Both the position numbers and the translations under genes were made by a program. The notes under the pieces were generated by a model. It saw nothing but the letters and a program-made list of their open reading frames with translations, had not been told where the DNA came from and ran no database searches. DNA of 64,000 nucleotides, taken from positions 196-64,195 of the forward strand of contig CANRIB010000005.1 of assembly GCA_947630575.1 (NCBI GenBank). The letters are read 5' to 3'. This stretch comes from an uncultured Bacilli bacterium (lineage in GTDB: Bacteria; Bacillota_I; Bacilli_A; RF39; UBA660). Below, piece after piece: positions 1-47,777 of this stretch; within the stretch, counting starts at the first letter, position 1; each line of letters starts with the position of its first letter.

Positions 1-166
1 AAAACTGTCCGTAGCTAAGTTTCTCATTTTTATCTTTATATTTTAATCTTTATTTTAGTATTATTTATATAGCTATATTTTTAGCACTTACTAGTCGTAC
101 TTTTTATTCTTTTATCCCTTATAAACACTGGGTTTATTCAAAACTGTCCGTAGCTAAGATACTTCA

Positions 167-1684
167 TCATGATATTTTGTATGGATTATTTGATGCCCCT
201 GTTCCTGTAAATGTTATATCAGCCTTCAGATTTATTACTGGGCGCACACCCCTCGCGCCGTACACGCTGTTAGTGTAGAGGTAGCCATACGAATCCACAC
301 GGAACACGTAAGCATAGCCGTTACTGTCGAAGTAATACGGAGACATTGTCCAATAGTCTTTATTTGTACATAGCCAGTATTTATTATTACTTTGACCTGC
401 AAATCCTCCGGCAAATATTACTTCGTCACTTGTTATTAAGCCTACTGGATTTGTTAATTTCTTATTTCCTAATATTGTTGTTCCATCTTTTGTTGTCGCT
501 CCTTTTGAATTTTGTCCTGTAAACAAATCTCTTGTTGGATTTGAACATTTCAAAGTTGGTTCTTGTGTTTTATCTTCACTCGTATCTGAATTCCATACTC
601 TATGGACTGGTGCATATGCAGTTTGTCGTTTTGCATATCCTCCGTTGCCTTTTCCTAGATAACTTCCGTGGTTTTTATCTGCTAATTCTCTATCATTGCA
701 AAAGCCTGTGTCTATATCTATTTTTTCTACTATTCCTTGGCTTCCTAAATTTGTATTTGTCCACCATTTATCTAATTCTCCTTTTATTGTACTATCTTTT
801 GAATTTTGGTGTGCATCAGCATACTTACTTGTGCTACCACCATTGTTCATGAATCCTACATATGTATTATCATTGTAAGTTGCATTATATTGTTGAACAG
901 TTTTATCGTTAGTATATGTAGTTGTTATTTGAGTACCTGTACCTGTTGTTGCTGGAGCTGTTGTTCCTCCTGCAGTATTTGTTCCCGCATATATTAACCT
1001 TATTGTGCCATTTCCATTTATTCGGATGATTCTCCACCATATATCTTTTCCATTTTCTTGTCCAAATTTTACCCAGTTATTTTTATTATCATCTAATGTT
1101 CCTCTAAACACGTAACTAGTTCCAAAATCATCCTCTACACTATATACTCCATTTTCGGCCATATTATTATTTTGACTTCCACTATCATAACATATTCCCC
1201 CTTTATTTCCACTACAACTTGGTCCTGTTATATTTGCAGTCAATATTCCATCTGATTCTATTCCTAAATTAACTAAAGTATCTTCTGCTGTATGTTTTTC
1301 TTTTTTAAAATACAAAGTACATTTATCTCTTTTCTTTAGATTACTAAATGTATGATTACCATCTATTGTTTTTAATATTGCTTCTTCGTCTTCTTGGGTA
1401 TCGTCTATCATACATTTACTTTTATTTTCGTCTATTTCATAACCGGTAGTTGGTACACTTGTTGTTATTTCATATCTTCCATCATCATTTTCTTTTCGAA
1501 TTTCAACTATCGTAAAATCATATGGACTATATGATATATTACCATTAACTATAGATACACTTTTGGTTACTTGATATTTTGCTTTACTTACCATTAATAT
1601 TATTGTAAATAATAACAATACTAAAAATACAAAACAAATTATTATTTTAGTTCTTTTATTTCGCTCTATCTTCTTAAATTCCAT
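167..1684 (-). CDS. Membrane-anchored secreted protein, paralog A (divergent N-terminal half, conserved C-terminal lectin-like domain with hypervariable cassette)
   Basis: 505-aa ORF with N-terminal hydrophobic anchor IIICFVFLVLLLFTIILMV. The C-terminal ~330 aa closely match ORF 45484..47442 (WWRIIRINGNGTIRLIY, YVGFMNNGGSTS, DYWTMSPY...GVRPVINLKAD). The YW[ST]xSP...G[VF]RP[VA] pattern recalls DUF1566/DUF6273-type C-lectin-like domains (from memory, not searched). Confidence 0.8.
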   Translation of the reverse strand: MEFKKIERNKRTKIIICFVFLVLLLFTIILMVSKAKYQVTKSVSIVNGNISYSPYDFTIVEIRKENDDGRYEITTSVPTTGYEIDENKSKCMIDDTQEDEEAILKTIDGNHTFSNLKKRDKCTLYFKKEKHTAEDTLVNLGIESDGILTANITGPSCSGNKGGICYDSGSQNNNMAENGVYSVEDDFGTSYVFRGTLDDNKNNWVKFGQENGKDIWWRIIRINGNGTIRLIYAGTNTAGGTTAPATTGTGTQITTTYTNDKTVQQYNATYNDNTYVGFMNNGGSTSKYADAHQNSKDSTIKGELDKWWTNTNLGSQGIVEKIDIDTGFCNDRELADKNHGSYLGKGNGGYAKRQTAYAPVHRVWNSDTSEDKTQEPTLKCSNPTRDLFTGQNSKGATTKDGTTILGNKKLTNPVGLITSDEVIFAGGFAGQSNNKYWLCTNKDYWTMSPYYFDSNGYAYVFRVDSYGYLYTNSVYGARGVRPVINLKADITFTGTGASNNPYKIS

Positions 1685-1839
1685 GACTTTGATTCCTTCC
1701 TTATCAATTATATTAGAAATTCCTAACTTATATTAAAATTATAATATCTCATATACTAAAAGTCAAGAAAAAGTTTTTCATTTCAAACACTATATTTTGT
1801 ATATAAGCTTTAAATGAGAAAATTAGACTGGTGATTGTT

Positions 1840-2292
1840 ATGTATAATACTATAAATATTAAAAAGATTAGATTAAATAAAGGGAAAAATCAAAGTGAAG
1901 TTGCAGATTTAATGAATATAAGCAGGTCTACTTATGCTTTATGGGAAAGTAATAATAATATTTTTCCAATTGATAGATTAGTTGATTTTTGTAATGTTTT
2001 TAGTGTTTCGTTAGATTATGCTTTAAATTTAACAGATAAAGAATTAGTTATTAAAGCGCCAATTGATATAGATAAATCTAGTGCAAGATTAAAAGAATTT
2101 AGAAAAGAAAAAGGCTTAACACAAGAAAAATTAGCTATTTTTTTACAAACTAATAAATCAGTAATTTGTAATTATGAGAAAAAAAGAAGTATTCTGGCAA
2201 CCCCTTTTCTTTATATGATATGTGAGAAATATAAAATAAGCGCAGACTATTTAATGGGAAGAATAGATACTCCTAAATATTTAGACAAATAA
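1840..2292 (+). CDS. XRE-family transcriptional regulator with two tandem HTH domains
   Basis: Two Cro/C1-type HTH units (QSEVADLMNISRSTYALWES and QEKLAIFLQTNKSVICNYEK). Divergent from ORF 167..1684. ATG at 1840 follows a GGTGA Shine-Dalgarno (SD) that contains the GTG at 1831 used by the track. Confidence 0.8.
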   Translation: MYNTINIKKIRLNKGKNQSEVADLMNISRSTYALWESNNNIFPIDRLVDFCNVFSVSLDYALNLTDKELVIKAPIDIDKSSARLKEFRKEKGLTQEKLAIFLQTNKSVICNYEKKRSILATPFLYMICEKYKISADYLMGRIDTPKYLDK

Positions 2293-5894: not shown

Positions 5895-7231
5895 TATTTA
5901 ACCTCCCTGACTTCGGCTTTAATATCGCCCTTATGAAATTTAATATTAATAATATCTTTTTCTTTTAAAAGTGAACTATCTTTAATAAGATTATCATCTT
6001 TAGTTACGAGAGAATAACCTTTTTCTAATATTCCTAAGGGATTAACTAATTTTAAAGTATTAATTAATATTTGATAGTTATGTTTTTCTTTTAAAATTAT
6101 ATTATTAATAATATTATATAAATTCTTTTCATTATAAATTAATTTTTCTTGTTTTAAGTTAAATAGATTCATAGGATTTTTTAAAACATAAGAATTTTTA
6201 AGATTATGGATAATTAGATTATAATTATCTAGTTTTTTAGTTATATAATTATTTAAAGTATCAATATAATTATCTAATCTTTGTTCTTTTAATTCATATA
6301 AAGATAATGGATTTTTTAAAATATAAGAACTAGTTATATTATCTAATCTTAATTTACTTTTATGAAGAAGATTACCCATAAATTCATTTAATCTTATTTC
6401 ATAGGAATTAATCATGTTATTTATTTCACTGATAGTGGGAACAGCCATTTCAGCAGCACCAGTTGGAGTTGGAGCACGCATATCGGCGACAAAATCCGCG
6501 ATGGTAAAATCTATTTCATGGCCAACCGCGCTAATAATCGGAACGCGAGCTTCATATATAGCTCGAGCGACAATCTCTTCATTAAAAGCCCATAAATCTT
6601 CAATAGATCCTCCCCCACGACCAATAATTAAAACATCTAAATTATAGTTTCCATTATCGGCTTCTTTTATTTGTTTCACTATATCAGGCGCAGCGTATTC
6701 TCCTTGAACTAGCGCAGGAAATAAAATTGTTTCACAAATAGGGAATCGTCTTTTAATAGTAGATAAAATATCTCTAATCGCGGCCCCAGTTGGAGCGGTG
6801 ATAATGCCGATTCTTTTAGGTATTTTTGGAATTGGTTTTTTATGGGCATCATTAAATAAGCCTTCTTTAGCTAGTTTTTCTTTTAATTTTTCAAATTCAA
6901 TATATAAATTACCTAGACCATCTGGTTCCATTTTATCGACATATATTTGATAAGTTCCTTGGGCAGGATAACATGAGATTCGCCCTTCAACCAAAACATT
7001 CATCCCATCTTCTGGAGCAAAAGTAATGTTTACGGCACTTGAATAAAACATGACAGCACTAATTCTTGATGTATCATCTTTTAAAGTAAAATATAAATGA
7101 CCACGGGTATGATTTTTGAAGTTAGATATTTCACCACGAAGATAAACTTTTTTTAAATAAGGATTATCATCAAACATTGTTTTAATATAAGTATTTAAAT
7201 CACTTATTTTAAGATATTTGTTCCCTTCCAT
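5894..7231 (-). CDS. xseA: Exodeoxyribonuclease VII large subunit
   Basis: 445 aa with N-terminal OB fold (VYLRGEISNFKNHTRGHLYFTLKD), catalytic core (IGRGGGSIEDLWAFNEE) and a long helical tail. Confidence 0.9.
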   Translation of the reverse strand: MEGNKYLKISDLNTYIKTMFDDNPYLKKVYLRGEISNFKNHTRGHLYFTLKDDTSRISAVMFYSSAVNITFAPEDGMNVLVEGRISCYPAQGTYQIYVDKMEPDGLGNLYIEFEKLKEKLAKEGLFNDAHKKPIPKIPKRIGIITAPTGAAIRDILSTIKRRFPICETILFPALVQGEYAAPDIVKQIKEADNGNYNLDVLIIGRGGGSIEDLWAFNEEIVARAIYEARVPIISAVGHEIDFTIADFVADMRAPTPTGAAEMAVPTISEINNMINSYEIRLNEFMGNLLHKSKLRLDNITSSYILKNPLSLYELKEQRLDNYIDTLNNYITKKLDNYNLIIHNLKNSYVLKNPMNLFNLKQEKLIYNEKNLYNIINNIILKEKHNYQILINTLKLVNPLGILEKGYSLVTKDDNLIKDSSLLKEKDIINIKFHKGDIKAEVREVK

Positions 7232-7250
7232 ATAATCAAATCCTTTACAT

Positions 7251-7646
7251 TTATTCTTTTATTATTTTATCTAAAACAGCATTAATGATTTTTCTTACAG
7301 CATCATCACTATATTTTTTAGCAAGTTCAATCGCTTCATTAATAATAACAACATGGGGAGTGTCAGTATATTTAAGTTCATAAATGGCTAAACGAAGAAT
7401 GGCGGCACCAGTTTTATCAATTCTTGTTATGTCCCAGTCAATCATTTTTTCATTAGCAATTTTGTCTAATTCATCTTTATAAGTAATTACTCCATAAACC
7501 ATATCTTTAACAAAATCATTTTCGATATCCATGTTATCATGCATAATATCTTCAATATTACATTTTACTTTATTACTATTCATTAAATCATATTGATAGA
7601 GAATTATCATAATTTTTTCTCTTAATTCACTTCTTGTTAATGCCAT
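7251..7646 (-). CDS. nusB: Transcription antitermination factor NusB
   Basis: 131 aa with RSELREKIMIILYQ and AILRLAIYELKY...INEAIELAKKY motifs. Confidence 0.9.
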   Translation of the reverse strand: MALTRSELREKIMIILYQYDLMNSNKVKCNIEDIMHDNMDIENDFVKDMVYGVITYKDELDKIANEKMIDWDITRIDKTGAAILRLAIYELKYTDTPHVVIINEAIELAKKYSDDAVRKIINAVLDKIIKE

Positions 7647-37019: not shown

Positions 37020-37424
37020 CTAAAACATTTTTTCTTTTAATTTGGTTATTATTCTTTGTTTATTGTAATAAAAAGTTATATCTATTATTTCGTTATCTTG
37101 ATATTTAGCAGAACATTTTATGGTTAATTCTTTGTAACTAATCATATTTTCTTTATCTACTTTAATTATTTCTTGTTCTATTTCGTAATTAGTTTTTTTA
37201 TGGTTAAAAGAAATTTCTGTTATATCAATATTACTAGGAATAAATGTAGTTATTAAACCATTTTCAACATAACCTTTAGTTTGGTAATAATCATATATTT
37301 TAATTTGAGTAAGGAAATAGCTTAAGATAAGTATTAAGGCTGTAAATAAAATAACTATAACCCAGACAATATTTAATGGTAAAATGCGTTTAAAGGTATA
37401 TTTATTTTCGAAAATATTATTCAT
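37020..37424 (-). CDS. Small membrane-anchored accessory protein of the bacteriocin exporter (unusually short)
   Basis: One N-terminal TM (IVWVIVILFTALILILSYFL) followed by a beta-rich segment. Sits between the exporter and the peptides, where LcnD/ComB-type accessory genes lie, but is only ~134 aa. ATG at 37424; the track TTG is at 37439. Confidence 0.5.
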   Translation of the reverse strand: MNNIFENKYTFKRILPLNIVWVIVILFTALILILSYFLTQIKIYDYYQTKGYVENGLITTFIPSNIDITEISFNHKKTNYEIEQEIIKVDKENMISYKELTIKCSAKYQDNEIIDITFYYNKQRIITKLKEKMF

Positions 37425-39465
37425 ATTCGGCAACCTCAATTACTTTAGGAAATAAATCACTTAAATTTTTATGAGAAACATATATTAAAGTTATATTTGG
37501 GAATAGATGTATGATATTGTTTAATATTTCTCTTTCAAGTGTTTCATTTACTTCACTTAAAGCTTCATCTAAAATCATTATATGGCCTTTTTTTAATAGA
37601 GCTCGAGCTAAGATAATTCTTTGTCTTTCTCCCCCACTTAGATTGTTAGAAGCAGCATTAATTATAGTTTCATAACGATTAGCCCGTTTATTAATTATTT
37701 CATCAATATGACATATTTTACTTACTTTATCTAATTCAGAATCGGGAATATCACGATAACAAAGAATATTTTCTTTGATACTGCCCGTGAATAATTGTTC
37801 TTCTTGACCAACATAACAAATATTGTTTCGAAGAGAATCTAAAGAACAATCTAATTCATTATGACCTCCTATAAAAATACTTCCAGAATAACCTTCATAT
37901 ATGCGATATAAAAGCTTACAAATGGTACTTTTGCCACTTCCACTTTTACCATGTAAAAATACTTTTTCATTAGGTAATATATCAAAAGTTATATTCTTGA
38001 TAACATCTTTATATTGGTTATAAGAGAAAGTTACATTTTTTAAAGATATACTATTATCTTTAATATTAAAGCCTCGATTATGGGTTTCTTCGGGTATATT
38101 TAGAAACTCTCCTAGTTTTTTAAATGAAGCTTTTAAATAATTATATTTGGGTAAGAGCTCGATTAAATCTTTGATAGGATCAAACAGGTAGAGAATAATA
38201 CTATTAAAAGTTATTAAGTTTAGTAATGCTAATTTGTTTTTCGCTATTAAATAAATACCAAAGGTTAAAATTAGAAATAAGCCTACCTCATAGATAAAAT
38301 CTTTAAACAAATTGATTTTATTTAATAACTTAGTTAAATTAAAATTACTTTTTAAAAAACTTATTAGTTTACTTTCTAACCGAATTAAAAACTTCTCCTC
38401 CAAATTTAAGTTTTTAATACTATTATTAAGTTCAACGTTTTCAATTAAAATAGCATTAAACTCAGTTGCTTTATCAATGTTTTCTTTAATATGGCGATAT
38501 ATAATTTTATTAAAAATTAAACTACCGACAATATAAATGCCTATTACTAAACAAAGAAGAAAAAATAATTGGGCATTTATAAAGTATAAGACTATACCAG
38601 ATGTCATGACTAAAATGAGATTCAAAATGAAATTAGTAAATATCTCTGATAATAAAGATTTAATTTCACTTAATTCTTCAACGCGAGATATTATTTCACC
38701 TGTCGTTCGATTTTGCATGAACTTTAAAGGAAGGTTAAATATGTGTTTAAGAAAACTGGTAAACAATTCTAAATCAATATTTTTATTAAAATAATTTAAA
38801 TAATAAACTTTAAAAAAATTAAAGATAACTTTTAAGAAAGTTAAACTACCAAATAATATTATAATAAATTTTAAAAAATTTAAATCGCTTCCTTGTTCTA
38901 TTTGAGAAACTGCAATTTGAAAATAAAAACTATTAAAGATGGCTAGAATAATAACTAGGAAATTAACTAGACAGATACTAAGAAATAATTTTTTATTTTG
39001 ATGCAGAAGTTTGAAAAATATATCAAAGATGGTTGTTTCTTTTTCAAACTTAATAATTTCTGAGATAGGCATGGCGAGTATAAGGACATTATCCCAGATG
39101 GACAAAAAATCTTCTTTTTTCATTTTAACTTTGCCTTTAGCAGGGTCCATGAGATAAATGTGCTTATTTGTAATTTTATAGATAACAACAAAATGCTGCA
39201 GACCATTTTTTAAAACAACATGGGCAATCGCAGGGAAATAAATATTTTTATCATTAATATCTGTTACTTTTACACCCATAGATTCAAAACCATATTTTTT
39301 TAAAGCACTAATTAAATGAAAAGCAGTAGTTCCGTTGATCGTGGTAACTGTGTCTTCTCTTATTTTTTCAACAGGAACATAGCCACCGTAGTATTTAATT
39401 ATACAGGAAATACAACACGCGCCACAGTCCTTTAAATCTCTTTGAATTACTTCTTCAATTTTCAT
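37417..39465 (-). CDS. Bacteriocin ABC exporter with N-terminal C39 peptidase domain
   Basis: C39 motifs DCGACCISCI (Cys), HFVVIYK (His) and MDPAKG. Six-TM region. Walker A GKSGSGKST, signature LSGGERQR, Walker B IMILDEA. ATG at 39465 is preceded by GGGAGG. Confidence 0.9.
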   Translation of the reverse strand: MKIEEVIQRDLKDCGACCISCIIKYYGGYVPVEKIREDTVTTINGTTAFHLISALKKYGFESMGVKVTDINDKNIYFPAIAHVVLKNGLQHFVVIYKITNKHIYLMDPAKGKVKMKKEDFLSIWDNVLILAMPISEIIKFEKETTIFDIFFKLLHQNKKLFLSICLVNFLVIILAIFNSFYFQIAVSQIEQGSDLNFLKFIIILFGSLTFLKVIFNFFKVYYLNYFNKNIDLELFTSFLKHIFNLPLKFMQNRTTGEIISRVEELSEIKSLLSEIFTNFILNLILVMTSGIVLYFINAQLFFLLCLVIGIYIVGSLIFNKIIYRHIKENIDKATEFNAILIENVELNNSIKNLNLEEKFLIRLESKLISFLKSNFNLTKLLNKINLFKDFIYEVGLFLILTFGIYLIAKNKLALLNLITFNSIILYLFDPIKDLIELLPKYNYLKASFKKLGEFLNIPEETHNRGFNIKDNSISLKNVTFSYNQYKDVIKNITFDILPNEKVFLHGKSGSGKSTICKLLYRIYEGYSGSIFIGGHNELDCSLDSLRNNICYVGQEEQLFTGSIKENILCYRDIPDSELDKVSKICHIDEIINKRANRYETIINAASNNLSGGERQRIILARALLKKGHIMILDEALSEVNETLEREILNNIIHLFPNITLIYVSHKNLSDLFPKVIEVAEYE

Positions 39466-39621
39466 GTTTTTTCCTCCCTTCACCTTTATATATTACGGGA
39501 AGATGCCCATTTTCCTTTTTTATTTGGAAATTTAGGACCAAAAACAAATATTTAGGACATGGTTCGACATTTTTTTTATTTTTTTTAGGTATAATAGCTA
39601 ACTTAAGAAAGGAGGAATTTT

Positions 39622-45483: not shown

Positions 45484-47442
45484 TTATTGGACTATGTAAG
45501 GGTTAGAACTTGTTCCTATATCTTCTCCATCAGTGAAGGTAAATGCTGTATCGGCTTTTAGATTTATTACAGGACGGACACCTAACGTGTCGTTACCGTG
45601 GTCGTAGTAAAGCTGGCCAGTCGAAGACACATGGAATACGTCAGCCGCGCTACTGTAAAAGTCATACGGAGACATTGTCCAATAGGATGAATTTGTATAT
45701 AGCCAATATTTATTATTGTTTTGACGAAAAAATCCTCCGGCATATATTACTTCGTCACTTGTTATTAAGCCTACTGGATTTTTTAATTTTTTATTTCCTA
45801 TTATTGTTTTTCTGTCTTTTGTTGTTGCTCCTTTGGAATTTTGTCCGGTAAACAAATCTCTTGTTAAATTTGCACATTTTAAGGTTGGTTCTTGTGTTGA
45901 ATCCCAATTAGTACCTTCACTCCGCCATACCCGATGGACTGGAGCATATGCAGTTTGCTGTTTTGAATATCCTCCTTTGCTTTTTCCAAGATAACTTCCG
46001 TGGTCTTCGTCTGCTAATTCTCTGTCATTACAAAAACCTGTATCTACATCTATTTTATCTACAATATCAACACTTCCTAAATTTGTTTTCTCCCACCATT
46101 TATCTAATTCAGCTTTTATTGTACTATCACTTAAATTTTGATGTGCATCTGCGTAACTACTCGTACTGCCTCCATTGTTCATGAATCCTACATATGTATT
46201 ATCGTCGTAAGTTTCATTATATTTTTGAATAGTTGTATCGTCAGAATATGTAGTTGTTATTTGAGTGCCTATACCTGTTGTATCTGGAACAGTTGAACCT
46301 ATTCCAGAATATATTAATCTTATTGTTCCATTACCATTTATTCGGATGATTCTCCACCATATAGCTTTTCCGTCTTCTTGTCCAAACTTTACCCAATTAT
46401 TATCTACTGTTCCTCTAAATACATAACTAGTTCCAAAATCGTCTTCTGCACTATATACTCCGTTTTGATTCATATTTATAACAGAAGAACCACAGTTACT
46501 CCCTAAATCATCTTTACAGCTTGGCCCTGTTACTGTTGTTATTGTTCCAAGAGAATTTCCAAGTTTTAAATCAGCTAGCCTTTCTTCTGCAGTAAGTGTT
46601 GTATCTATATCAAAATATAAATAACAAGCTGTTCCACTTTTACTTACATTTGATAATATTATTTCATTATTCTCTATTCTTACTTTTACTTCTTCATTAT
46701 TACATTTTGTTTCTTTTTGATTTAATACATATCCCTCTTTGGGTATTTCTTCTACTTCTTCATATTTTCCTTCTTCCGTTTCTTGGTAAAATGCTACTAA
46801 GTTTATATCGGCTTTTGTATTACTTATCTCTCCATATACTCTTCCTTTAAATCCTTCTCCTATATCTTTACTTTGATTTCCACTATTTGGATATTCTACT
46901 ATGATATAATAATATTTCATTGTTCCTTCTTCTTTGGCTGTTATAAATTCTGTATTAGTTATTTTTATTGTTTGTTCTTCTGTTGTTTTTGGTATCTCTC
47001 CTTCATTTATTGGCTCTCCTAATTCTTCTATATTTGATGTACATACTTCATTTAATTGTTGGGCTCCATTTACTACTTTCTTTTTCTTTTCACAATTTAA
47101 GGTTATCTCTTTTTCTTCTTCTGATACATATACTTTATATTTTAAATTTGTATTTAAATTATTTGTTCCTATCCATGTTAAGTTATAAGCTATAAGTTCA
47201 TTATTACCTGTTGCAGTTGCTGTTACTTTAGATAGAGTTTGATGTCCTGGATATATATCTACATCACCAAACTCTATATTACCACTTATATCTAATGTTG
47301 AACCATTTACTGTTGCCGTTCTTCCTTCTGTTGTTGCTCCTGTTCCTTTAAAAATAGTTTTACCTACAAAATATGCTAAAGATACACCTATTCCTAATAT
47401 TAATACACTTAACAATATTATTACTCTTTTATTCTTTTTCAT
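45484..47442 (-). CDS. Membrane-anchored or secreted protein, paralog B (SipW/TasA-like signal region, Ig-like middle, conserved C-terminal lectin-like domain with hypervariable cassette)
   Basis: ATG at 47442 (MKKNKRVIILLSVLILGIGVSLAYFVGK) follows AAAGGTGAG. The LAYF motif recalls SipW-dependent signal peptides. The C-terminal ~330 aa are paralogous to ORF 167..1684. Confidence 0.8.
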   Translation of the reverse strand: MKKNKRVIILLSVLILGIGVSLAYFVGKTIFKGTGATTEGRTATVNGSTLDISGNIEFGDVDIYPGHQTLSKVTATATGNNELIAYNLTWIGTNNLNTNLKYKVYVSEEEKEITLNCEKKKKVVNGAQQLNEVCTSNIEELGEPINEGEIPKTTEEQTIKITNTEFITAKEEGTMKYYYIIVEYPNSGNQSKDIGEGFKGRVYGEISNTKADINLVAFYQETEEGKYEEVEEIPKEGYVLNQKETKCNNEEVKVRIENNEIILSNVSKSGTACYLYFDIDTTLTAEERLADLKLGNSLGTITTVTGPSCKDDLGSNCGSSVINMNQNGVYSAEDDFGTSYVFRGTVDNNWVKFGQEDGKAIWWRIIRINGNGTIRLIYSGIGSTVPDTTGIGTQITTTYSDDTTIQKYNETYDDNTYVGFMNNGGSTSSYADAHQNLSDSTIKAELDKWWEKTNLGSVDIVDKIDVDTGFCNDRELADEDHGSYLGKSKGGYSKQQTAYAPVHRVWRSEGTNWDSTQEPTLKCANLTRDLFTGQNSKGATTKDRKTIIGNKKLKNPVGLITSDEVIYAGGFFRQNNNKYWLYTNSSYWTMSPYDFYSSAADVFHVSSTGQLYYDHGNDTLGVRPVINLKADTAFTFTDGEDIGTSSNPYIVQ

Positions 47443-47567
47443 TATCTCACCTTTTACTATAGACAAATATGTCCCATATCATAATTATAGAATAACATAT
47501 TTGGGGCAAACTTGTCAATGGCTTATTGGGGCAAATTTGGTAATATTTTTATAGTGAGGTGCTAAAT

Positions 47568-47777
47568 ATGTTAAAAGAATATCGATTAAGAAAAAATATT
47601 AGTCAAGAAAAATTGGAGTCTTTAACTAACTTAGATAGAAAAACAATTTTTAGAATAGAAAATGATATAAATGTTCCTTTACTAGATAATTTTGCTAAAA
47701 TTGTTACTGCTTTAGAATTAACTGACGAAGAAATAGTAAAAGAAGTTAAAAAAACAATAAAAAAAGATAAAAATTAA
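47568..47777 (+). CDS. XRE-family HTH regulator (single domain)
   Basis: 69 aa (QEKLESLTNLDRKTIFRIEND). ATG at 47568 is preceded by GAGGTG. Divergent from paralog B. Confidence 0.75.
   Translation: MLKEYRLRKNISQEKLESLTNLDRKTIFRIENDINVPLLDNFAKIVTALELTDEEIVKEVKKTIKKDKN

Follow-up and report, generated by a model that had tools for sequence, protein, structure and literature searches.

Several described diversity-generating retroelements (DGRs) bear on the locus analyzed here. The Treponema target TvpA has an FGE-type C-lectin fold. In Treponema denticola a single template repeat (TR) lies beside the reverse transcriptase (RT) and serves seven non-adjacent targets (PMC5758913). MutS-like accessory genes have been reported as cassette parts in 16 DGRs, including those of Legionella (PMC5758913), and two or more TRs in 53 DGRs (PMC11661182). 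For BPP-1, one report states that structured RNA flanking the template is required for cDNA synthesis (10.1101/2023.10.23.563531). In gut phages, DUF6273 is a DGR target domain, found in tentaclins and in Faecalibacterium prophage targets (PMC10743442, PMC11792537). We analyzed a 64,000-nt stretch of contig CANRIB010000005.1 from an uncultured Bacilli bacterium, called the window below, in which two paralogous genes, A and B, each contain a short block of anomalous composition (cassettes A and B). These cassettes were very probably written by a DGR. Both are likely to be variable regions (VRs), VR-A and VR-B, produced by mutagenic retrohoming that acts in trans from parts outside the window.

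Two cassettes of anomalous composition and codon usage

A first-pass annotation, made by reading the window alone, had pointed to a hypervariable block in each paralog, and the coordinates and peptides it gave were correct (Table 1). The two cassettes differ in length by one codon, and no third copy was found within the 64-kb window. The most GC-rich 90-nt stretch of the entire window is 240..329, with a GC fraction of 0.578 compared to a mean of 0.280 (standard deviation 0.069), and cassette B ties for second place at 0.533. On the coding strand, cassettes A and B have GC fractions of 0.55 and 0.53, versus 0.31 and 0.30 in the respective gene bodies, and adenine makes up 0.19 of the cassettes versus 0.45 of the bodies. 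Codons ending in C (NNC) account for 16/32 codons in A (0.50) and 13/31 in B (0.42), compared to 0.07 in the gene bodies. Among two-fold degenerate codons that end in a pyrimidine, the C:T ratio is 22:7 in the cassettes and 41:246 in the bodies (Fisher p = 7e-12). The anomaly as originally described, GC-rich, poor in A and rich in C-ending codons, is thus confirmed (53-55% GC, 19% A, 42-50% NNC). One count needs correction, since TAC, listed as occurring seven times, is found five times in A and eight times in the two cassettes together.

The paralogs share 82% DNA identity over 335..1170, with a peak of 91%, and the cassettes are 62.5% identical to each other. Downstream of the cassette about 27 nt are conserved, after which the C-terminal tail (167..238) falls to 56% identity between the paralogs. 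The earlier description of the flanks as near-identical on both sides was therefore overstated. Because flank identity is moderate and the tail itself is divergent, the block is marked by its composition and codon usage and not by divergence alone.

The cassettes match template repeats from related genomes

In related metagenome-assembled genomes (MAGs), TRs of a distributed type are commoner than those of a compact type and form self-contained units of about 300 nt, 39 of which we recovered (33 distinct). When the window was searched with an nhmmer profile of these units, VR-A matched with 64.5 bits over model positions 40-157, which is the TR part only and runs up to its 3' end. The sole other match was VR-B, with 27.5 bits. 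We then defined a scaffold of 37 non-adenine TR positions that are invariant in at least 27 of 28 units. VR-A has no mismatch at any of the 37, placing it in the best class among 74 cassettes, and it is changed at 6 of 15 adenine positions. A GC-rich 3' element common to VR and TR, resembling an initiation of mutagenic homing (IMH) site, is present for A only. Homology stops at GGTGTGCGCCCA, beyond which the TR (…CCCAATATCC) goes on with ATATCC and the VR (…CCCAGTAATA) with GTAATA. We presume that GGTGTGCGCCCA, at 239..250, is the IMH-like boundary for homing or priming.

The differences fall preferentially on adenines. VR-A is mismatched to the best TR from another genome at 15/30 A sites and at 8/75 non-A sites (p = 3e-5); the gapless alignment of VR-B with the 34-codon class of TRs gives 13/30 and 15/74. 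The scaffold also includes the synonymous states GGC, CTC, TTC, GTG and CGC, and in the gene bodies GGC is used for 7 of 99 glycines and TTC for 2 of 30 phenylalanines. VR-A thus keeps synonymous codons that are rare in its own gene body, from which we infer that protein-level selection cannot explain the scaffold match. Across the family, the number of scaffold mismatches anticorrelates with NNC content (rho -0.54, p = 7.5e-7), a pattern that rewriting followed by AT-biased decay would yield.

Loci from other assemblies are numbered with an L. L083, from the same metagenome sample as paralog A, has a full TR unit (208 bits) beside a helix-turn-helix (HTH)/target pair, and the 5' part of its target gene shares 84% DNA identity with paralog A. 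As a template for VR-A, the L083 TR was rejected on account of 13 non-A mismatches. Adenine-specific mutagenesis, already suggested from the window alone, is supported by these comparisons: relatives of the two genes adjoin real DGR parts, and VR-A combines an unbroken scaffold, an exact 3' end and A-biased differences.

The same data bear on ordinary paralog divergence, in which positive selection for aromatic and small residues would have acted on a surface loop that is GC-rich by chance. In all homologs this region forms a loop of variable length, and the C-terminal tail beyond the cassette is equally divergent, as this account would predict. It explains neither the synonymous choices (the C:T ratios above, and GGC, CTC, CGC and GTG as in the TRs) nor why 12 nt are identical to the TR 3' end and why a profile of non-coding units gives a match. 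We consider it scarcely credible.

Template repeats of the distributed type are stand-alone RNA units remote from the RT

All TR units share one architecture and 3' end. A TATAAT-like box is followed by GGTTAATCT, a TR of about 100-120 nt, AATATCCTTTTA…AGGATACAAGATTAAYC, and a hairpin with a T-run. The peptides that the TRs would encode resemble MSPYNFNGSNANVFYVNSNGNLNNNNVNNTNGVRP and fall into several length classes. In an RNAalifold consensus of 28 units, a 10-bp helix closes the TR, and its outer pair covaries (UA 12, GC 9, AU 5). A stem directly 3' of the TR has covarying inner pairs, and the terminator contains many compensatory pairs. No matching Rfam family was found for the unit. A phage origin of the units was rejected, with 0 matches in 2.9 million viral contigs.

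The units often lie beside target genes and may be arrayed: L017 has five of them, L099 three, and L029, L033, L091, L096 and L111 have two each. Among 29 TR-bearing loci (229 kb in total) none contains an RT, and in 10 a target gene lies 0.4-10 kb away. The L017 array sits between uvrA and an HTH/target pair, and that of L029 between a target gene and the rpsJ operon. Between units 1 and 2 of the L017 array there is an ORF of 312 aa (6636..7574, minus strand), which widens the spacing from about 300 to about 1300 nt and may be an inserted mobile gene.

The VR/TR pairs of a single MAG, Lapin-030__bin19, show an adenine bias that reaches p = 1e-8, and some of its VRs appear to combine parts of two TRs. 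In the VR at L027 58..199, the 5' two-thirds fits one TR and the 3' end fits another TR (…TGGGATGTACCTGG), the two being L017+8095 and L029-9265. This suggests either that different TRs rewrite parts of one VR or that the true TR was not recovered.

Promoter-proximal cassette arrays that adjoin expressed paralogs, together with chimeric VRs, would also be expected from RT-independent antigenic variation, with the TR-like units serving as silent donors for gene conversion of the pilin or VlsE type. Such donors should be copied faithfully, but the differences concentrate on donor adenines. The donors are also uniformly rich in Asn/AAC and nearly invariant between species, in contrast to their diverse recipients; they have a promoter-like box, covarying RNA structure and a terminator, and they occur in genomes with a conserved RT-Avd operon. 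We regard gene conversion as very improbable. Both it and plain positive selection were rejected on the adenine bias and the synonymous-codon evidence.

Relatives encode compact DGRs and a conserved RT operon

The compact type is represented by L081 (2963..7248) and L073, whose RTs are 91% identical. Within 3 kb, each has a VR, a TR, an HTH gene, a MutS-like gene (MSL), Avd and RT, and the VRs end in ALRPVIS. In L081 the TR lies about 300 nt downstream of the VR and contains AAC codons, and 27 of 37 VR/TR mismatches fall at TR adenines. In the distributed type, the RT operon stands alone (L007 11976..13831), the TRs are elsewhere, and the VRs end in GVRPVIN. The compact and distributed RTs are 44% identical, and both layouts coexist in related MAGs.

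The synteny of the distributed operon is stable, in the order MYG1, MSL, bAvd, RT and DUF378. Neither a TR nor a VR was found adjoining the MSL/Avd/RT genes in L007 or L084-L088. The operon RT is 77-88% identical across more than 100 clusters and matches the PHROG reverse transcriptase with an E value of 4e-86, and it scores below the curated cut-offs of the group II, retron and Drt models. It contains IGNMTSQ and YVRYMDD, which we take to be DGR hallmarks. Avd is recognized by three libraries, as PF22296 (bAvd), as the PHROG "Avd protein of DGR" (E 3e-15), and as NCBIfam DivGenRetAVD (E 1e-9, below the curated cut-off). Searches of the ENA samples that contain paralog A did not recover an RT; the operons come only from sibling samples of the same ENA series.

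The targets form a large family in gut Bacilli

At E<=1e-5, databases contain 2970 relatives of the C-terminal domain of the paralogs, and the nearest one other than the domain itself is about 60% identical. Species-representative genomes (GTDB) hold at least 577 confirmed domain matches, with a best identity of 58% among the matches listed, and the best 80 of these all come from MAGs of uncultured gut Bacilli or former Tenericutes (rabbit, human). Single MAGs contain 14-16 or more target loci. All members have the same layout, YWTMSP, then a length-variable stretch, then GVRPVINL, so that the YWxxSP...GVRPV motif first seen around the two blocks recurs throughout the family.

Across 76 family cassettes, GC reaches 0.64 (about 0.33 in the body), A falls to 0.08 (about 0.41) and C at third codon positions reaches 0.71 (about 0.07), and the cassettes grade continuously into background composition. 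Lys, Glu, Gln and Met, which NNC cannot encode, make up 3.4% of the cassette residues compared to 14.4% upstream.

The paralogs match PF19789 (DUF6273) with 17.5 and 16.5 bits, below the cut-off of 23.5, and only over the C-terminal 45-60 residues. Several homologs of paralog A do have a precomputed PF19789 annotation. The domain spans about 330 aa, and the Pfam model has 172 positions. AlphaFold2 modeled the 331-aa domain with a pLDDT of 91.2 and a pTM of 0.92. In a Foldseek search of predicted viral structures, the best named matches to this model were phage DUF6273 proteins (E ~1e-5 to 1e-3, TM 0.3-0.5); DUF1566 and C-type-lectin entries appeared only at E ~1.

Origin and present activity of the cassettes

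A mechanism that would account for these features can be put together by inference. A stand-alone TR-RNA gene of about 300 nt elsewhere in the genome would be transcribed from a -10-like box. In the RNA, a 5' GGTTAATCT would pair with AGATTAAYC on the 3' side, and the TR, about 100-120 nt long and rich in Asn/AAC, would be followed by a stem-loop and a terminator. A complex of RT and bAvd, perhaps with the MutS-like protein, would copy the TR into cDNA with misincorporation opposite adenines. The cDNA would then replace the homologous stretch of the target, anchored at the GC-rich 3' end GGTGTGCGCCCA and resolved on the 5' side within the conserved scaffold (…ATGTCTCCG, GTGTTC, GGCAACCTC, GTGAAC). 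AAC codons would thereby become NNC codons, and this conversion would produce a GC-rich, A-poor block, rich in Tyr, Ser, Gly, Asp and Asn and without Lys, Glu, Gln or Met, in a gene of 30% GC.

Several results weigh against this reading. VR-B has 7/37 scaffold mismatches, three of which are substitutions that turn its 3' end into GGTGTCCGTCCT, so that this end is lost. The exact template of VR-A was not found among the 39 TRs, the best of which show 8-10 non-A mismatches and a length difference of one codon. In the window itself, blastn-short, patterns allowing 3 mismatches and the nhmmer profile found no TR, only the two cassettes. Similarly, no RT was detected there by tblastn with two RT lineages that share 44% identity, and neither Avd nor a MutS-like gene was found; MYG1 and DUF378 were likewise absent. 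The initial statement that no RT, Avd or TR is visible in the 64 kb therefore stands, now on homology and profile searches. The missing RT is expected and says little, because in this lineage targets and TRs do not usually lie near the RT operon, as the 29 TR loci illustrate. The suggestion that the machinery lies just beyond the left edge is plausible for a TR array and not for the RT, for the same reason. A C-type-lectin fold, predicted for the C-terminal domain, did not emerge from direct comparison, since Foldseek against the PDB returned nothing (best E 0.33) and a PDB profile search was negative. A lectin-like character follows only indirectly, via the literature on DUF6273.

Finally, VR-A is identical in the window and in two other assemblies, L001 and L002 (at least two samples; all are consensus assemblies). 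The L002 copy, which comes from another sample, has three substitutions and a frameshifting 25-nt deletion (window 547..571), all outside the cassette. The expectation that variation would be confined to the cassette is not borne out by these three assemblies, which show no heterogeneity in VR-A and, in L002, differences only elsewhere. Given this identity, current activity is unproven.

These observations lend weight to a fossil account, in which a DGR wrote the cassettes in an ancestor and has since been lost or become inactive on both genes, leaving two ordinary sequences that slowly decay. An unchanging VR-A with one pseudogenized copy, the mismatches and mutated 3' end of VR-B, the family continuum down to background composition and the lack of an RT or TR in the 64 kb would all fit. 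Nevertheless, VR-A retains every scaffold position and an intact GGTGTGCGCCCA although its flanks have diverged by about 16% from paralog B, and an intact scaffold inside a diverged gene points to recent rewriting. Across the lineage, conservation of the RT operon is strong, and a TR unit occurs in the same sample as paralog A. We judge the fossil account, which concerns present activity only and agrees with the retrohoming reading on origin, to be the less likely one.

We consider it somewhat probable that the DGR is still present and that VR-A is a live target, in which case the organism would presumably still carry an RT and the TR of VR-A. Judged by sequence, VR-A looks like an intact, homing-competent variable region that was rewritten recently, and VR-B looks as if it was written earlier and is decaying under AT-biased mutation. 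If the DGR persists, the expected template of VR-A is a 35-codon TR resembling SPYNFNSNGYAYVFNVNSNGNLNNNNVNNANGVRP.

More tentatively, the system may be a genome-wide combinatorial DGR. One RT-bAvd-MutS-like operon would serve a library of stand-alone, individually transcribed TR-RNA genes, dispersed or arrayed and of several length classes. Any TR could home into any of about 15-20 DUF6273 paralogs via the 12-nt 3' end and the scaffold, giving chimeric and length-switched VRs and a set of targets that steadily turns over, some fresh and some decaying. In this network paralog A would be a live member, with a TR array just beyond the repeat described below.

Genomic context of the paralogs

The surroundings are core chromosome, with genes for a SpoIVB-type peptidase, ProS, RpsB, Tsf, a class-A penicillin-binding protein and PolC, and no tRNA gene was found in the window. 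Between the paralogs, at 37417..39483, lies a C39-peptidase ABC transporter of the bacteriocin-export type, for which we saw no link to the cassettes. At each locus that we inspected, a divergent XRE-type HTH gene accompanies the target gene (Table 1) and may be a dedicated regulator of its expression.

The stop codon of paralog A is followed after about 10 nt by a perfect tandem repeat of 139 nt (window 1..158), which runs on to the left of position 1. It recurs in L002 8934..9266 (2.4 copies, 100% identity) and L001 2109..2308, and all three assemblies of paralog A (the window, L001 with 2.3 kb and L002 with 9.3 kb) break inside it. This repeat was rejected as a TR or TR flank, as the TR-unit profile gives no match. 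Upstream of its copy of paralog A, from window position ~1772 on, L002 (1..7344) departs from the window and has another HTH gene and a gene for a Peptidase_M60/fn3/F5_F8 protein of 1708 aa. This would reflect either a move or recombination of the target gene between loci or a chimeric assembly. For paralog B, no record was found elsewhere.

Some target genes are followed, directly past the stop codon, by a hairpin, CTTGCC…GGGCAAG (L007 10751..10850, L083 2308..2400), and then by a stretch like the TR 3' element (…CAAGATTAAATTCC); paralog A has the 139-nt repeat there instead. The hairpin could be a terminator, a target-recognition hairpin or a remnant of a TR.

Table 1. Coordinates of features in the window and in related loci
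Feature	Location	Strand	Basis or remark
VR-A, TR-homologous stretch (codons MSP...GVRP)	236..347	minus	nhmmer, scaffold, A-bias and composition
Cassette A, hypervariable core of VR-A, 96 nt	239..334	minus	
3' end of VR-A, GGTGTGCGCCCA, GC-rich	239..250	minus	Same as 3' end of all TR units
VR-B, partly decayed	45571..45676	minus	Core is cassette B, 45571..45663, 93 nt
Paralog A, 505 aa, membrane-anchored, C-terminal DUF6273-type domain of ~330 aa	167..1684	minus	Probable DGR target gene
Paralog B, 652 aa, C-terminal domain as in paralog A, N-terminal part different	45484..47442	minus	ORF and alignment
Double-HTH (XRE-type) regulator, divergent from paralog A	1831..2292	plus	Pfam HTH_19/HTH_3, two stretches
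72-aa ORF divergent from paralog B, looks like a small XRE-type HTH protein	47559..47777	plus	Sequence by eye
TR-unit sites	L017 6353..8931; L029 11250..11918; L033 2142..2785; L083 83..368; L089-L113		
HTH genes paired with targets	L017 8876..9325; L007 8901..9161; L029 8847..9290; L083 374..655; also L002		
DGR genes of L081	L081		MutS_I-like ORF (PF01624, E 1e-7); Avd-like ORF, 114 aa; RT, 367 aa (RVT_1, E 8e-12)

Discussion

Retrohoming in trans explains the two compositional anomalies of the window. It would make both genes hypervariable surface receptors, one of them probably still diversifiable. Survey pipelines that look near the RT would score such systems as orphan RTs, missing the TRs and many targets. 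The natural TR-RNA units, with a common covarying scaffold and different templates, constitute a comparative set for the requirements of priming and homing and a model for multiplexed, programmable diversification. In addition, the gradient from pristine to decayed cassettes offers an internal clock for target use.

Among known systems, the gut-phage targets with DUF6273 (PMC10743442, PMC11792537) are similar in domain type, in the position of the VR at the C-terminal end of the domain and in their gut habitat. They differ in that the genes studied here are chromosomal, membrane-anchored and paralogous, and their type of TR is absent from viral contigs. Like the TvpA DGR of Treponema, the system is cellular and non-phage, and it would act in trans on remote paralogs with C-terminal VRs ending in …VR.V. 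In contrast to Treponema, the TRs are dispersed, multiple and arrayed, with RT in 0/29 TR loci, the targets are more numerous, and their fold is of the DUF6273 type.

With BPP-1 (Mtd, TR, Avd, bRT), the system shares adenine-specific TR/VR differences, an AAC-rich TR, a GC-rich 3' VR boundary, Avd and a template flanked by structured RNA. The phage cassette of BPP-1 is compact, its one TR lying between avd and brt. The TRs described here are instead small-RNA genes in their own right, each with a promoter-like box and a terminator, and the operon also encodes a MutS-like protein. In DGRs with MutS-like genes, too, a small MutS-domain-I protein is encoded with Avd and RT; unlike in those cassettes, TR and VR are not adjacent to these genes in L007 or L084-L088. 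The presence of more than one template per system is shared with the surveyed multi-template DGRs, but that survey contains no description of RT-unlinked TR arrays or of TR length classes serving many paralogs. More generally, in the Creative Commons-licensed PMC and bioRxiv literature we found no account of a DGR in which the TRs are small-RNA genes of their own that form arrays, lack linkage to the RT and serve many paralogs on the chromosome. The ingredients, namely remote targets, MutS-like genes and multiple TRs, all have precedents, and the features of the window are ordinary members of the system that combines them.

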